Origin: an uncultured Methanoregulaceae archaeon
GTDB lineage: Archaea; Halobacteriota; Methanomicrobia; Methanomicrobiales; Methanospirillaceae
Direction of reading: 5' to 3'
Assembly: GCA_963717525.1 (NCBI GenBank)
Contig: OY970343.1
Coordinates: forward strand, 1,792,001 to 1,856,000
DNA: 64,000 nucleotides
Both the position numbers and the translations under genes were made by a program. The notes beneath the pieces are model-generated. The model saw only the letters and a program-made list of their open reading frames with translations, ran no database searches and was not told where the DNA came from. How positions within the stretch are numbered: position 1 is the stretch's first letter; every line of letters starts with the position of its first letter. This document shows, in pieces, positions 41,243 to 48,373 of the stretch.

Positions 41243-42898
41243 TTAATAGTCGCCCATGCCGGGCATTCCACCCATGCCACCCATGCCGGGGGGCATGCCA
41301 CCGGCACCAGGTGCCGGGCCGGGTGACTTCGAGGAAGCGATCACATCATCAATGCGGAGGATCATAATCGCAGCTTCTGCAGCCGATGAGATTGCCTGGG
41401 TCTTGACACGGAGCGGCTCCACGACGCCGGCTGCCTTCATATCGACGGCTTTTCCTTCGAACACGTTGAGACCGTAGTTCTTCTTGCCCTTCTCATGGGT
41501 TGCGCGGATCTCGACCAGCATGTCAATGGGATCGAGACCGGCGTTCTCTGCAAGGGTCCGCGGGATGATCTCGAGTGCTACAGCAAAGGCCTCGATGGCG
41601 AGCTGTTCCTTGCCACCGACCGTTGCCGCGTACTCGCGGAGCCGGAGCGAGAGCTCGGTCTCGGGTGCGCCGCCACCGGCGACAACCTTCTTGTCCTCGA
41701 CAACGACACCGACAACACGGAGTGCGTCATGGATGGCGCGCTCGAGCTCGTCGACGACGTGCTCAGTGCCACCCTTGACGATGATGGAGACCGCCTTCGG
41801 GTTCTTGCACTGCTCGACAAAGGTCATCTCCTCTCCGGAAACCTTGCGCTCCTCGACAAGGCCGGCATGGCCGAGTTCTTCCTTGCTGATCGCGTCGATG
41901 CTGGAGACGAGGCTGCCACCGGTTGCCCGGGCAAGCTTCTCCATGTCGCTCTTCTTGACACGGCGGACGGCGAATATACCGGCCTTTGCAAGGTAGTGCT
42001 GTGCGATATCGTCGATGCCCTTCTGGCAGAACACTACGTTCGCGCCGCTCGCGACAATCTTTTCGACGATATTCTTGACCATGCGCTCCTCTTCATCGAG
42101 GAATGCCTGTAACTGCTCGGGGTGGGTGATGTTGATCTCAGCGTCAACCTCGGTCTTCTTGAACTCGACCGCTGCGTTGAGGAGAAGGATCTTTGCGTTG
42201 GTGACCTTCTTTGGCATGGCCGGGTGCACGCGCTCCTTGTCAACGAGAACTCCTTCAACAATCTCGGAGTCCTCGATGCTGCCGCCGGTCTTCTTTTCGA
42301 CCTTGATGTTATCGATGTCGACGGTCCCGTCAGCGTCGGTAACCATGGTGACAGCCCTGACAACGAGGTCGCAGAGCTTGTCCTTGCTCGCCTCAGCGCC
42401 CTTGCCGGTCATCGCGGTGCCGGCGATGTTCTTCAAGAGCGCCTTGTCGGTTGATTTGACATCGAACGCGATGTCCTTGAGGAGCGCCTGCGCCTTCTCT
42501 GCTGCCATTCGGTAGCCGTGGGCGATAACCGTCGGGTGGACGTCCTGTTCGAGAAGTGACTCGGCCTTCTTTAAAAGTTCCCCGCCAATGACGACTGCGG
42601 TTGTGGTCCCGTCGCCGACCTCATCGTCCTGGGTCTTTGCGACTTCGACCATCATCTTTGCGGCCGGGTGCTCGATGTCCATTTCCTTTAAGATGGTGAC
42701 ACCATCGTTTGTGATCACGACATCGCCAATGGTATCGACAAGCATCTTGTCCATACCCTTGGGGCCGAGCGTGGTTCTGACTGCACTGGCAACAGCCATT
42801 GCAGCGGTGATGTTCATACCCTGGGCATCACGGCCGCGGGTGCGGTTGGTGCCTTCCTTAAGAATGAGAATTGGTTGTCCTCCAAGTTGTTGCGACAT
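41243..42898 (-). CDS. ths: Thermosome (group II chaperonin) subunit
   Basis: [16 protein letters not shown] and GGM-rich C-terminal tail. Confidence 0.98.
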
Positions 42899-42933: not shown

Positions 42934-42961
42934 GTGGTTCTATATAAATATTCTCTTAAAA
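42934..42961 (-). promoter_or_regulatory. Thermosome promoter (BRE/TATA)
   Basis: Minus strand reads AGAGAATA-TTTATATA-GAACC about 45 nt upstream of the ths ATG. Confidence 0.65.
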
Positions 42962-43078
42962 GGTTCTGATAGGATGAAGGGACTTTTACCAAAAACCAAA
43001 CCTCCGATAGATCGCGGGACTTTTTGGAAGAAAGATAAAAGACCCGGAATAAACAAGAGAGCATATAGTGAAAAACCT

Positions 43079-43990
43079 ATGACTGTTTGTATTGCAGCAA
43101 TATGTGATTCGATATCTCCATCGCCAAAAATTGTATTTGCATCAGATCGATTAGTTTCTGCCGGTGTAAGTTTTGAAAGCGGGGTTTCAAAAAGTCAGTA
43201 TTTAACCCCCAATGCATGGATTATGTCATCTTCGAACGATGCATTGGCAAGTGATGGTATCATATTAAAAATTCAAAAAATACTTGCGGACTCACCAGAC
43301 GCAGGTAAACAAATCCCAATAGAACAAATCGCAAATATGATCTCCCAAGAATGTAAAAACAAAATACGTTTAGAGAGGGAAAACCAAGTATTTTCGCAAT
43401 TTGGAATAAACGAAAGTGATTTTGCCGAAAAATCAATTAAAATATCCACTTTGGTTGTTGCGGATATTTTAAATCGATTGCGCGAATTTAAATATCAATT
43501 TGAGGTTGAGTTTTTAGTTATCGGGTTTGATTTTATACCAGCAAAGAATCTATACATGCCTCATATTTATTCGATAAACGAACTTGGAGATATTCTCCCC
43601 ACGGATCATTTAGGATTTGCTACAAGCGGGAGTGGGAAGTATTTGGCGTTTCCAGAAATTACTAAGTATGCATATCAACCGAACACTCCACTAAGCGAAG
43701 CGGTTTTAAGAGTGTACTGGTCTAAAAAAATTGCCGAACGAGTTGGCGGGGTCGGGAAAGAGACAGATTTGTTAATACTTCATGCAATAAAGGATGGAGT
43801 TAAATTATGGATTGCCCCGCCAGAAACCAAAAAAATGTTGGATGATAAACTCGAAGCCGTTCGGAAAGATGAAATAAAAATCTCTCTTGAGGTTATAACA
43901 GAATTGAATAATACTGTTTTCAATCCGGTAAATCAGCAGAATATACAACAAGAGGTAAAAGAGACAAAGACGATTTCGGAAAAATCTTAA
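43079..43990 (+). CDS. Divergent proteasome-beta-like Ntn hydrolase (transposon cargo)
   Basis: Met-Thr start (MTVCIAAIC), IVFASDRLVS, K at the Lys33-like position, FLVIGFD, PHIYSI and ATSGSG. Confidence 0.7.
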   Translation: MTVCIAAICDSISPSPKIVFASDRLVSAGVSFESGVSKSQYLTPNAWIMSSSNDALASDGIILKIQKILADSPDAGKQIPIEQIANMISQECKNKIRLERENQVFSQFGINESDFAEKSIKISTLVVADILNRLREFKYQFEVEFLVIGFDFIPAKNLYMPHIYSINELGDILPTDHLGFATSGSGKYLAFPEITKYAYQPNTPLSEAVLRVYWSKKIAERVGGVGKETDLLILHAIKDGVKLWIAPPETKKMLDDKLEAVRKDEIKISLEVITELNNTVFNPVNQQNIQQEVKETKTISEKS

Positions 43991-43993
43991 TTA

Positions 43994-44170
43994 TTATTCT
44001 TTTTTCATCTCAATTACTAATCTATCACCCTCTATTTTCCATTGGAACTTATCTCCGGGTTTAAGATTCATTTGATCCATAATAAACGCCGGTACTGTCG
44101 TCCTTAATGAACGCCTTTTCGATGTAGCAAGATTAAGAATTGATTCATCGGTTCTTGGATTTTTCGACAT
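43994..44170 (-). CDS. AbrB/MazE/SpoVT-type DNA-binding protein (58 aa, not in the ORF track)
   Basis: Manual translation MSKNPRTDESILNLATSKRRSLRTTVPAFIMDQMNLKPGDKFQWKIEGDRLVIEMKKE*. Confidence 0.8.
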   Translation of the reverse strand: MSKNPRTDESILNLATSKRRSLRTTVPAFIMDQMNLKPGDKFQWKIEGDRLVIEMKKE

Positions 44171-44171
44171 A

Positions 44172-44282
44172 GTTTACCCTTATGTTCACCCACATATTTA
44201 TTCTTTTGTATGCCAATTTGTTTACCCACAAATTATAAATACTTATAAGGAGATTATTATGTAGGTAAACAAGTAGGTGAAC
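44172..44282. promoter_or_regulatory. Five GTTYACCYAC-like boxes in the divergent AbrB/transposase promoter
   Basis: GTTTACCCT at 44172, GTTCACCCAC at 44184, GTTTACCCAC at 44220, and inverted GTAGGTAAAC at 44261 and GTAGGTGAAC at 44273. Confidence 0.7.
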
Positions 44283-45473
44283 ATGATGCAACAACTAACT
44301 AACCCAAGAGAATTAAGAGGCCTTGCGATTCTCTCGCAGCCGAACACGATCATCCAGACTGGCAAGAACGAGTGGGATGTCCGATCACAGAGCAAGGATG
44401 CATACTATCAAGTTACACGGAAGTTCCAGGATCGCCACGCCCAAATGCGCGGTCAGGCAATGTGGACATGCTCATGCCCCGATTTCCAGACGAGAAACAT
44501 GCCCTGTAAACACATTTTTTCTGTCCAATTCTCGTTAAAACTTGGCGGAGATGTGGAGAAAGAAAGCGCGGCACAACACATCGAAACGGCAGAGCCAAAG
44601 ATCCTTTGCCCCGCTTGCAAGAGTGAGAGTGTTGTAAAACGCGGCATCCGTAAAACACAGTTTGGAGAGGTTCAGAGATTCGGATGCACTGACTGCGGCC
44701 ATAGATTTGTTGTCGATAAGGGATTCTGCCGGATGAAGTTTAACCCAAAGATCGTCACGCAGACGCTTGATCTTTACTTCAAGGGGCTTTCACAGAGAAA
44801 GATCGCGGACCACTTAAAGCAGTTTGAAAGTGTTAGCGTAGCCCAACCCACGATCCTGAGCTGGATCAAGAAATACCTGAAACTTCTTGCAAAGTATTCC
44901 GAGAAATACAAAGCAGAAGTCGGCAAGATTTGGCACTCTGATGAAACGACGGTGTTCATCAAGAAAGAGGGGGAGAAAAAGTATTACCAATGGATCTGGA
45001 ATGTCATGGATGCAAAGACACGCTATCTCCTTGCCTGTCAGATTACCGAGACGCGATTTGTTAAGGATGCGCGCATCCCGCTAAAGAAGGCAAAAAGTGT
45101 CACCAATGTTAGACCAGACGCAATTGTTACCGACGGACTACAAGCATACAAGGAAGCCGTTAAAACCGAGTTCTTTGACCACGAGGCATTCATCCAGAAC
45201 CCCCATATTCGCCTGAAAGACTTTGAGACCAAACCTAACAACAATATCCTTGAACGGTTAAACGGAACATTCCGTGAGAGAACAAAAGTTGTACGGAGTT
45301 TTGACAGTGGACTTGGTGCAGCAGAATTTGCAGCGGGAATGCAGACGTATTATAATTATATCAGACCTCATCAAGGCATTGGTGGGATGGTGCCGGCTCA
45401 GATGGCAAACATCCCGATCAATCTGATGGGGAATAGATGGGAAACGATGATTGAGTTGGCAATTAGAACCTGA
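44283..45473 (+). CDS. IS6-like (IS240-type) DDE transposase with N-terminal SWIM finger and Zn ribbon
   Basis: CSCPDF..R..PCKH (SWIM), CPAC...CTDC, HTH region, WHSDET, IVTDG, NNILERLNG and YYNYIRPH. Confidence 0.9.
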   Translation: MMQQLTNPRELRGLAILSQPNTIIQTGKNEWDVRSQSKDAYYQVTRKFQDRHAQMRGQAMWTCSCPDFQTRNMPCKHIFSVQFSLKLGGDVEKESAAQHIETAEPKILCPACKSESVVKRGIRKTQFGEVQRFGCTDCGHRFVVDKGFCRMKFNPKIVTQTLDLYFKGLSQRKIADHLKQFESVSVAQPTILSWIKKYLKLLAKYSEKYKAEVGKIWHSDETTVFIKKEGEKKYYQWIWNVMDAKTRYLLACQITETRFVKDARIPLKKAKSVTNVRPDAIVTDGLQAYKEAVKTEFFDHEAFIQNPHIRLKDFETKPNNNILERLNGTFRERTKVVRSFDSGLGAAEFAAGMQTYYNYIRPHQGIGGMVPAQMANIPINLMGNRWETMIELAIRT

Positions 45474-45794
45474 TCCTCAGATACAATACTATTTTAAATA
45501 GATTTGTGACCCTATTATAAACTCCAAAAATTGTTATTTACCAAAAAGTTAATGAAGTCACAGGGGCACACTCAGTACATTATTGTTAAGCCAAATGGCT
45601 ATTGCACAAATTACCTAGACTGTGACAGGGGGCGTTATAAAAAATTATGATGAGGAAAGGGGAACCATTAGGGATGCTAAATTGGAAAACTGATAAAATC
45701 CATCTTATGACCTCAACAGATAAAAAAACATTCGACGAATTTCGGAAGAAAATTGAAGGGGAACCCCACATTCCAGAATTTTTAATAAAATAAA

Positions 45795-46748
45795 CTAAAA
45801 CACTCCTTTTAACAAAAGAATTTGTAATATTGCAACGAGTGAAATGGTATAACTTATAATAAATAGTTGCCTATGCGGAATTTCATATTCGTCTCTTAAT
45901 AATGAGTAATAAAAATAAGCAAACCCCATTAAAACTATTAAAAATTCAACCCCAAAAGTACAATCAAAAGCAAGAGTATCTTGACCTAAAAAAGATAACA
46001 ATCCATTATGCAAAATAAAAAGTGAAAATATGAGAAATATCAGGGGGATTAAGGAAATTGCTGCAATTGCGGGAGTAACTTCTGCGTAATAAGTAAACCA
46101 CATTTTGGGGTCTTTCAAAGAATCCCAAGTTTGGGTTAAATAATCAAAATCTTTAGAATCAATCAAAAAATTATATGTTAATCTTCCTTCATTTCCTTTT
46201 ACAAATGGTTTCCCGCAATCGATTTGCTTAACAATTTCTTTATTGTCGATTAAGTACGAACCATACCCCATTTCGTATAATTTCCTTTGTTCTGGAAAAT
46301 AGAACGGGGTCTCCAACGCATTGTCCCAACACAATTTCCATCCTTTGGGGAAAGTGAGATAAAATTCCGGTTGAAGTTTACCCCCAATTTCTATAATTGA
46401 AGTTTTTTTAGGAATAAAAAAATCAGATAACTTGTCGATAGGATCTCCATTCTCGATAGCCGGATCAATCAAAGTGTACTCAACGCTTATTTTGACATGC
46501 TTGAACGAGGTTGTATTGGGAGCATCTGGGAAATCATCTAATGGATCTAAATTTAACAAAATATCAAAATAGTTCCCGTTTGTGTATTCTAAAAACCCAA
46601 TCTCTTTAGGCGTTCCGTTCCTCGTAATGACTTTTAATCCAATAAAATTTAAATTTTTTAATCCTGCGAGCATTGTAGGGTCATTTGCGTAAATATCCAT
46701 TACCTGTCGAATTTTTCTCAGCTGCGGTGGGGAAATATACCTCTTCAA
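45795..46748 (-). CDS. Hypothetical membrane protein (soluble N-domain plus 3 C-terminal TM helices), transposon cargo
   Basis: 317-aa AT-rich ORF with three hydrophobic C-terminal segments. Confidence 0.7.
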   Translation of the reverse strand: MKRYISPPQLRKIRQVMDIYANDPTMLAGLKNLNFIGLKVITRNGTPKEIGFLEYTNGNYFDILLNLDPLDDFPDAPNTTSFKHVKISVEYTLIDPAIENGDPIDKLSDFFIPKKTSIIEIGGKLQPEFYLTFPKGWKLCWDNALETPFYFPEQRKLYEMGYGSYLIDNKEIVKQIDCGKPFVKGNEGRLTYNFLIDSKDFDYLTQTWDSLKDPKMWFTYYAEVTPAIAAISLIPLIFLIFSLFILHNGLLSFLGQDTLAFDCTFGVEFLIVLMGFAYFYYSLLRDEYEIPHRQLFIISYTISLVAILQILLLKGVF

Positions 46749-46999
46749 TATGCCACCAAGTTTGTTGTATCTCTATAGACACAATAACTTAGACGATAAT
46801 GTTTATCATAAGAGTTTCGTTTTTATTATAATCCCAATATGTGCAAATCCCAGTCTCTCTAAAAAGTCCCGCGATCTATCACCTCTTTCCAAAAGTCCCG
46901 AAGTCCCTTAAACCTATCAGAACCTCTTAAAAGGTTCTGTTGCGTTGTCGGGAGATCCGTGCTTTTGGATCTCGCTGGTGCGTTGCGGGAGATGAGAGA

Positions 47000-47320
47000 T
47001 CAAGAGATCGAGATACCAACCGCTCCCATCAGCAATCCCAATCCCAGAACAACCAATGCAACAAGTAACAACCCCAGCAACGGGTTTATCTGCATAAGGT
47101 ACTCCATACCCCACACCATAGTAAGAAGCGGTATGATGAAGAGCAAAAGTCCCGCTATGACGAGTTTTATGATTAAGGGCTTTGTGCTCTCTTTTTTTTC
47201 AGGCGATATAACCGGGGGCTTTTCTTTGACAGGTTTGGGGGCCGGGTTTAAGAGGGCTCCGCATCTTCCGCAAAATTTGTTTGGATCCGGGTTACTATAT
47301 CCACATTTTGGACAGAGCAT
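47000..47320 (-). CDS. Zinc-ribbon domain membrane protein
   Basis: CPKCG..N.....FCGRCG, a Pro/Lys linker and two TM helices. Confidence 0.75.
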   Translation of the reverse strand: MLCPKCGYSNPDPNKFCGRCGALLNPAPKPVKEKPPVISPEKKESTKPLIIKLVIAGLLLFIIPLLTMVWGMEYLMQINPLLGLLLVALVVLGLGLLMGAVGISIS

Positions 47321-47448
47321 AAATGATTTCTCTCTCGATCCTTTAGGTAATATAGATTTTGATTCAGGGTTCTGACAGGTTCGCGGTTGGTAAAGAGCGT
47401 AGCATATTTCACGCTTTGCTTACCAAATCCGGAACAAACCTCTAAAAA

Positions 47449-48373
47449 TCAGTCGCCCAGCATGTCGAGGAGTTCAAAGCCGTCCGCGATATGGTGGAAG
47501 CGATCCTCACCGATCACAAGCGTCCGCCCGATCTTTTTTTCGTGATGGTAATCAGTGATGATGCACATCGCATGCTTCTTTGCGATCTTCGAGAGATTGC
47601 TGATAAGGGCGGCACGCTTGACCACCTTCTGCGCCGGGCCGTAACCAGTGAGGATCGTGTGCTTGTCAAACGTGAGAAGGGCTTGGAACGGTGCGCCCCG
47701 GAGTGTCTGGAGCTGTATCCCGAGCTGCTCAAAAAAATCGATGGGGATGCCCGGACCCTGCCTTTTCTTTGGTTCCTCCTGCCCGGATTCTGCAGGTTTG
47801 CGACGGACAATATCGATGGACTCAACCACTCCCGTATTGAAGTACTCCTCGATACGGATCGCGACATCGAGCGTCAGTACCCATGCCGCTTTCGTATTTG
47901 CTGATCGTGCGCCGGGAGACCCCGAGCACCTGCCCCATGTCACCAAGCGACATGCTCCGCCGTTCGCGGAGCTCCCGGAGGGCGTTGCCATTGATGTTCA
48001 CGTACAGTCCGCCGGGAGAGGCGTACACGAGCGGTGGGATCTTCTCCACAAAGTAATCGTACAGCGTTGCGATGCTGATCGCGTAGATGCCATACCGGAC
48101 ATAGACCGCCCCCCGCTCGAGCTCGGCCTCGCGGGCACGTTCGCCCACGATGAGGGGCACACCACCCAGGTGCTGGGAGATCACGTCAAGATCGAACGCC
48201 GCTTCCTCGCTCACCGAATCGATGTGCGTAACGACTTTGATAACAAGCAGCGTCCCGTTATTGCGTGCGATGAGGTCGAAACTCCTCGGGCGGAGGGTAA
48301 ACTTCTCGGATACCTCAAATCCCGCCGATATCATCACGCTGGTGACCAGCTGGAGCTGGCGATCCTGGGACAT
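47449..48373 (-). CDS. Archaeal Cro/C1-type HTH transcriptional regulator, with an apparent frameshift near 47876
   Basis: RPRSFDLIAR, PGGLYV and HTH LGVSRRTISKYE; continues as TLDVAIRIEE...APFQA. Confidence 0.85.

Follow-up and report, generated by a model that had tools for sequence, protein, structure and literature searches.

IS6-like cargo transposons of archaea insert at a fixed distance upstream of TATA boxes, often at heat-shock promoters

We analyzed a 64,000-nucleotide stretch (the window) of contig OY970343.1 from an uncultured Methanoregulaceae archaeon (assembly GCA_963717525.1), in which a unit transposon of 3,963 bp and four genes occupies positions 42962-46924 beside a thermosome (group II chaperonin) gene. 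In the reading that we consider probable, this is an intact, IS6-like archaeal cargo unit whose target duplication lies 5 bases upstream of a TATA box, and its transpososome likely docked on TATA-binding protein (TBP) and transcription factor B (TFB) bound at the promoter. Elements of this family are units that land at the same offset in either orientation, leave the core promoter in place, can stack on one 8-mer and, in the Methanoregula group, favor heat-shock genes. Fixed-distance TATA targeting, the heat-shock bias and stacking are properties absent from the initial annotation of the window.

Fixed-distance insertion upstream of TATA boxes

Family homologues were found in 27 of the 301 genomes of the order and in 519 stretches of the genome collection, as well as in at least 1,198 protein clusters, and range over methanogens, Bathyarchaeia, ammonia oxidizers, Thermoplasmata and Archaeoglobi. 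Target sites were taken from two sets: 1) 42 loci (2 own, 40 fetched), which gave 27 bounded sites, or 26 once one overlap was removed; and 2) 54 of 77 loci, the other 23 duplicating the first set, in which a search free of any assumed end sequence yielded 30 sites, each with GG ends and an 8-bp duplication without mismatch, many of the misses being short contigs. The combined sample of 56 duplication-bounded sites comes from related genomes and is not fully independent; its bounded units or stacks span 1.3-9.9 kb, and all 56 target duplications differ in sequence.

The motif TTTAWAW (at most 1 mismatch) stands exactly 5 bases beyond the duplication at 41 of the 56 sites, and no other offset from 0 to 30 rises above 6/56. 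Background for a TATA box at this offset is 1.5% in the genome and 1.9% in the same flanks, and 7.6% and 13.9% in AT-rich DNA (two offsets allowed). The offset is found in Methanomicrobiales (25/32) and in other archaea (16/24), is kept at 27 of 42 sites when the 14 thermosome sites are set aside, and goes with both orientations of the element, 21 toward and 20 away. Positions of the TFB recognition element (BRE) that lay outside the selection are conserved as well (A at -4 in 35/41, A at -3 in 33/41, purine at -6 in 36/41), judged against the BRE consensus. For haloarchaea, the text of PMC4983044 gives the BRE as CGAAA. On these predicted promoters the cuts flank positions -13 to -6 relative to the TATA box, the promoter core survives, and the duplication restores the BRE edge. 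A further family search of 20 loci gave 6 bounded sites, 4 of them new, and all six agree with the offset. Viral contigs contributed 13 loci, 4 of them bounded and 2 with the TATA offset, too few for a claim of viral spread.

Heat-shock genes lie downstream at 27 of the 56 sites (thermosome 14, Hsp20 4, ArsR-type 4, CDC48 3, HtrA-like 1, M48 protease 1), 34 open reading frames (ORFs) having been scanned and the remaining thermosomes assigned by alignment; RadA, S17e, Lrp and PadR are among the other downstream genes. The bias is strong in the Methanoregula group, and relatives of the host's genus carry Methanoregula names in their records. An operator resembling CTAAC-N5-GTTAG is present at 16/56 targets versus 3/353 candidate promoters of the genome. 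We call it HSR1-like by the motif alone, a label set without direct comparison with HSR1, whose site has this sequence in the text of PMC9133787.

Thermosome promoters picked without reference to the transposase place the family at the same base. Among the best 30 of 60 genomes with a match, chosen by gene-start/promoter similarity and with our own included, 8 have a family end at that base; the other 22 are empty, with no end-like sequence present. A more abundant relative in run X10 bears a different end at the same thermosome base. Thermosome ranks in our promoter-scoring matrix are circular, since the matrix was trained on the targets.

Cargo varies from unit to unit. PADLOC models match 13 of the 58 passenger proteins scanned, mostly restriction-modification, and Panacea, HEPN, Fic and ParB are further passenger types. 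At 19 of the 56 sites the element abuts another family end.

The element at the thermosome promoter

In the window, the left duplication ends exactly 5 bases from the thermosome TATA box. The features of the locus are listed below, with repeats, duplications and palindromes read from the sequence.

41243-42898, minus strand: intact host thermosome gene (orthologue in locus L031, Cpn60_TCP1), the promoter of which is the target
42941-42948, minus strand: thermosome TATA box TTTATATA, conserved in 30/30 genus promoters
42949-42955, minus strand: seven BRE-like bases, the outer two inside the duplicated 8-mer
42954-42961, plus strand: left target duplication TCTTAAAA, at positions -13 to -6 counted from the TATA box's first T
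42962-42985, plus strand: left terminal inverted repeat
43006-43025, plus strand: left inner repeat, likely a second transposase site, found family-wide at +37/+38
43079-43990, plus strand: passenger 1, proteasome-subunit-like, 303 aa, with an N-terminal Thr (Atlas 0.97)
43994-44170, minus strand: AbrB/MazE-type gene (PF04014), 58 aa, divergent from the transposase, likely an autoregulator
44182-44284, no strand: nested palindromes in the regulator-transposase gap, likely operators
44277-45473, plus strand: transposase, 398 aa, with SWIM (PF04434), InsA-type Zn ribbon, helix-turn-helix (HTH) and DDE_Tnp_IS240
45795-46748, minus strand: passenger 2, with hydrophobic C-terminal stretches (Atlas best 0.83, a lead only)
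46861-46880, minus strand: right inner repeat
46901-46924, minus strand: right terminal inverted repeat
46925-46932, plus strand: right target duplication TCTTAAAA
46933-47440, plus strand: older relic of the same family, 508 bp, transposase-less, with a sound end at 46933 and a further end at 47368
47441-47448, plus strand: third target copy TCTAAAAA, 7/8, adjoining the stop codon of a host HTH gene

The initial annotation had described terminal repeats matching at 22/24 bases between exact copies of an 8-bp target, a second repeat, perfect over 20 bp, that begins 44 bp in from either end, and a recurring GGGACTT core, all of which we recover. The core has two left-hand copies (42979, 43016) and three right-hand ones (46864, 46893, 46901). 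Profile matches likewise bear out its SWIM, Zn-ribbon and IS6-like DDE transposase. Its view of a unit transposon with its own regulator and cargo stands, because relatives with the same end type and exact duplications differ in cargo and 22 of the 30 thermosome promoters are empty. The likeness that it drew to the reiterated ends of Mu, Tn7 and Tn5053 survives in part: two-site ends occur family-wide, a second copy of end positions 7-24 lying at +37/+38 in 44/108 family ends, but a conserved three-site array is not borne out. The insertion that it called recent is the youngest element of a stack, and is recent only in that relative sense. The empty site that it predicted proved wrong because the bases after the right duplication belong to an older family element: the DNA from 46933 on is the end of this relic, not host.

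The element has a G+C content of 38% versus 55% for the whole genome. No third match to the inner repeat with at most 3 mismatches occurs in the 2.29-Mb genome, which has two loose 4-mismatch matches only. Contigs of run X10, from another study, span both junctions with zero base changes; in four contig sets, which drop rare forms, we saw neither a joint that skips the element nor a circle junction. The window junction forms a palindrome around the target 8-mer. The far end of the relic is decayed, and its ORF at 47000-47320 (minus strand) encodes a zinc-ribbon membrane protein. Because the third target copy TCTAAAAA equals the insertion site of the closest relatives (L149, L150, L153, L155), the relic would have landed first, decayed to 508 bp and seen one target base change, and the present element would then have duplicated the changed 8-mer beside it. 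The host HTH gene is interrupted by a frameshift at window position 47875, for which an error of assembly is the likely cause: three runs lack one base at this point.

The transposase carries SWIM ligands C65, C67, C77 and H79, Zn-ribbon ligands C111, C114, C137 and C140, and catalytic residues D222, D286 and E326; the zinc ligands and the catalytic triad are invariant among 73 aligned homologues. A structure model built from this alignment is of good confidence (pLDDT 81.5). With it, Foldseek returned generic DDE matches only (ISCth4, TnsB, MuA, retroviral integrases; TM about 0.3). The SWIM profile matched no solved structure. Three homologues of about 460 aa (P0121, P0244, P0251) apparently have two SWIM-like stretches each. 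A small divergent ORF of AbrB, DUF2080 or similar type sits beside most relatives' transposases. Passenger 1 has zero Pfam or PADLOC matches; 28-40% of the members of its Atlas cluster carry PF00227, and its homologues are recurrent cargo in loci L031, L032, L050 and L066. A family search of passenger 2, Pfam and PADLOC included, gave no assignment.

Elsewhere in the genome, a second full element of 6,325 bp (2070743-2077067; L241) carries a methyltransferase and other cargo, has a transposase 76% identical to that of the window, and occupies the promoter of the other thermosome gene with an identical offset from its TATA box. A 5.8-kb unit at 520460-526280, with a 7/8 duplication, has the same offset from the promoter of a gene with an HSR1-like operator, and a family end at 414303 has it from the promoter of an ArsR-type regulator. 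Genome-wide there are 88 end-like sites, versus 1 on one strand of a shuffled genome, clustering near 0.50-0.54, 1.12-1.14, 1.28-1.31 and 1.69-1.73 Mb; 13 of the 88 have a TATA box at offset 5. The sites include 19 miniature pairs of ends, 78-111 bp long and lacking duplications, that cluster in accessory islands. Nested cases (L059, L043, L368) include a family element within another's transposase (L059) and one unit with paired IS5-type genes, and an IS5-type fragment lies near an IS6-type unit (G295, 1.059 Mb).

Docking on TBP/TFB, comparison elements and alternatives

We propose that the transposase binds two sites per end and moves the whole unit, that the AbrB-type gene represses the element, and that the transpososome docks on the host's promoter-bound TBP/TFB complex. 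Most complete units are flanked by matched duplications, consistent with simple insertion as the final outcome. Heat-shock promoters may be favored where a repressor holds TBP/TFB on the DNA without polymerase: the text of PMC9133787 describes Phr as keeping polymerase away from promoter-bound TBP/TFB, and a repressed heat-shock promoter would then offer a dock that persists. The preference might alternatively arise because these promoters are the strongest sites for TBP/TFB. Four TBP genes (about 0.44, 0.50, 0.97 and 1.29 Mb) and two TFB genes (about 0.50 and 2.12 Mb) are present in the genome; in one case a TBP and a TFB gene adjoin each other close to an island of family ends.

Elements with and without SWIM provide a comparison. 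In the same genome, the SWIM domain also occurs on an IS5-type transposase, within a cargo unit of 3,041 bp (287167-290207; L240:7168-10208) whose ends are different, whose duplication is 9 bp long and which has a TATA-like box at offset 6. Among 93 such SWIM-IS5 loci, 50 were bounded and 42 distinct; a TATA box stands at offset 6 in 20/42, or 37/42 with 2 mismatches, versus backgrounds of 1.6% and 11%. Eleven sites also score at offset 8, and the matrix trained on IS6-type sites peaks in this set at offset 6 only. SWIM identity averages 39% between the IS6 and IS5 types versus 44% within the IS6 type. This form of SWIM is almost confined to the two transposase types among the profile hits examined, and the SWIM-domain tree does not resolve a direction of transfer. 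SWIM-less short IS5 elements (45 bounded of 69 loci) have no sharp peak, with at most 5/45 at any offset, a few of their boundary calls looking spurious or one base off. Short archaeal IS6 elements of about 700 bp (L255-L321; 33 distinct of 56 loci), with boundaries set by exact duplications, have zero TATA boxes at offset 5.

Several observations weigh against docking. Fifteen of the 56 sites fail the 1-mismatch test, and 4 also fail at 2 mismatches. The heat-shock operator is present at only 3/42 SWIM-IS5 targets. Among the short archaeal IS6 elements there is a looser bias, at offset 10 (5/33, and 18/33 with 2 mismatches; backgrounds 1.2% and 9%). Three cargo units with a Zn ribbon only and no SWIM, with 9-bp duplications, have TATA-like boxes at offset 5 (0, 0 and 2 mismatches). 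Bound TFB might obstruct the inner cut, which falls inside the BRE-like bases. Promoters were called from sequence alone, and we saw neither a protein contact nor a transcript start or an event of transposition. Finally, only 16-19 bases separate the host stop codon from the thermosome TATA box, a gap so small that survival alone narrows this one site. The three SWIM-less units have GA-start ends (L334:7777-13059, L525:451-3658, L554:6902-12657), and together with the offset-10 bias they weaken the idea that SWIM alone is the targeting module. Promoter proximity seems older than SWIM in the IS6-like line and seems to go with SWIM in the IS5 line; SWIM probably aids docking or makes it more precise, and the IS5-type transposase probably gained the habit with it, but it is not the sole docking route.

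The main rival to TBP/TFB docking is direct DNA readout, in which the transposase itself recognizes the BRE-TATA sequence or its bendable shape with no host factor. It accounts just as well for a motif on one side at a constant offset, the cut falls at the BRE edge, and the SWIM and Zn-ribbon domains could bind DNA. We nevertheless judge it unlikely, for promoters with a weak TATA box and a good HSR1-like operator are still targeted at the same offset (L046, L047, L066), about 80 genome promoters score like typical targets and yet the bias is to heat-shock genes, and three transposase types with offsets of 5, 6 and about 10 better suit a shared host landmark. The docking partner might instead be the heat-shock repressor, an HSR1-like ArsR protein, given the operator at 16 targets and four targets that are promoters of ArsR-type regulators. 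This we find highly improbable: it is the TATA box that sets the offset, whereas the operator begins at 22-23 or is missing, and most Bathyarchaeia, Nitrososphaeria and SWIM-IS5 targets have no operator.

Recombination directed by resident ends, as in the targeted integration of IS26, or site-specific recombination at the 8-mer core would account for the 19 sites that abut another end and for the palindrome at the junction. It is scarcely credible for the family, since 37/56 sites have no neighboring end, all 56 8-mers differ, the empty sites have no end-like sequence, and IS26 targeting adds no new duplication according to the text of PMC7986276. Least credible is survivorship, in which insertion is random and only copies just outside the core promoter persist, for although the narrow thermosome gap suits it, the single-base peak recurs across many different genes, positions a few bases further out would be equally harmless, and short IS5 elements of the same phylum have no such peak.

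Docking on promoter-bound TBP/TFB would extend to a broader view that we offer tentatively and regard as rather doubtful in its entirety: that a large undescribed class of archaeal cargo transposons lands on the TBP-TFB preinitiation complex, that a portable SWIM binding TBP or TFB was swapped between two unrelated DDE families and passed the targeting on, and that repressor-stalled heat-shock promoters are docks on which defense cargo piles up. In this broadest sense, the TBP-TFB landing pad would be an archaeal counterpart of Ty3-TFIIIB. The fixed offset provides a base-precise safe-harbor rule for a mobile family spanning several archaeal phyla, under which the gene is spared and later elements can stack at the same spot. 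It accounts for the gathering of restriction-modification, Panacea-type and other defense-like genes beside conserved genes, in a domain where composite cargo transposons were undetected according to the text of a 2019 survey (PMC6563490). It also offers a direct way to ask whether eukaryote-like TBP/TFB machinery can tether a transposase in prokaryotes, for which nature supplies controls in the SWIM-IS6, SWIM-IS5 and SWIM-less forms and their offsets of 5, 6 and about 10, and a one-protein, promoter-adjacent integrator of several kb could serve archaeal genetics.

Classification and comparison with known systems

The family resembles IS6/IS26 in its PF13610 DDE core, in GG-start ends that share GGTTCTG with the bacterial consensus, and in the 8-bp target duplication found in the window element and its relatives. 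The transposase matches PF13610 above cut-off and falls short of the NF033587 cut-off (112.5 versus 125 bits). Its catalytic signature reads E--N---R-R (E326 to R335), which is neither the bacterial E-DH---K nor the archaeal E--F---K-R given for IS6 in the text of PMC6807381. The same text describes IS6 ends, in the strict sense, by a GG start, G7, G10 and a 14-bp GGTTCTGTTGCAAA; among 108 family ends, for which a GG start was the selection rule, G7 is present in 105, position 10 is A in 67, and the repeat runs to 24 bp. IS6 members are described in the literature covered as single-gene elements, mostly about 0.7-0.9 kb long but reaching 1.76 kb in the long clades, that move cargo by flanking direct copies, unlike the 3,963-bp, four-gene architecture of the window element. 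Replicative cointegrate formation and targeted conservative integration are the pathways of IS6/IS26 elements. The family further differs from IS6/IS26 in its SWIM domain, its own regulator, its units of 2.3-9 kb that bear cargo on either side, its two-site ends, its TATA targeting at a fixed distance and its stacks. One cargo-bearing IS6 member, ISDsp3 (tIS), appears in the review texts (PMC7986276, PMC6807381).

The transposase phylogeny that the initial annotation had called for, run as a quick tree, has a branch (SH-aLRT 90) that separates the 30 SWIM-bearing cores from the short archaeal IS6, ISCpe7-type and IS240 proteins. The novelty that it suggested also holds up, in that the family matches no IS6 subgroup in the main texts of PMC7986276 and PMC6807381. 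Judged from the main text of the 2019 and 2021 IS6 reviews, the family is apparently undescribed; the literature covered, which took in few subscription papers and neither supplements nor ISfinder, contains no description of SWIM transposases or of TATA-directed insertion in archaea. Long bacterial IS6-like clades (ISCpe7, ISTet2) are described there with an N-terminal CxxC zinc finger and outer bases that are rarely complementary, and one such clade with a further domain bearing a signal peptide. The Zn ribbon is common to our family and the ISCpe7-type clostridial clades, with proteins 26-30% identical; here, in contrast, the extra domain is SWIM, the GG ends are complementary and the tree branch is separate.

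Tn7, Mu and Tn5053 use a separate ATPase or targeting protein and have a 5-bp duplication and TG...CA ends. No ATPase or targeting gene of this type is among the genes of our element, which has an 8-bp duplication and GG ends, and the likeness is limited to repeated end sites. Casposons, like the present family, are cargo units that re-use one target and form tandem arrays, as described in the text of PMC6563490. Casposons and Tn7-like elements rely on Cas1 or on TnsABC+D and a single target gene or site, whereas here one DDE protein serves many promoters.

The closest parallels lie in how the target is chosen. TnGBS/ISLre2 (p-MULT 3) and ISKra4 are likewise DDE elements whose insertions lie a set distance upstream of promoters and leave the gene unharmed, and the text of PMC3942029 describes TnGBS/ISLre2 as targeting bacterial sigma-A promoters, 15-17 bp from the -35 box, with a Mutator-like transposase and mostly in one orientation. 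Here the targets are archaeal BRE-TATA promoters, the cores are IS6-like and IS5-like, and both orientations occur; the IS256 (Mutator-like) model scores 46 bits versus a cut-off of 150, and the best model is IS6. Yeast Ty3 attains precise, harmless integration through a TBP-containing general factor, as shown for Ty3 (10.1101/2021.07.27.453949) and proposed here. Ty3 is described as a retrotransposon of Pol III genes that makes contact through a chromodomain, whereas ours is a DNA transposon of protein-coding BRE-TATA promoters. By analogy, then, the family appears to work like TnGBS/ISLre2 and Ty3 while belonging to neither.

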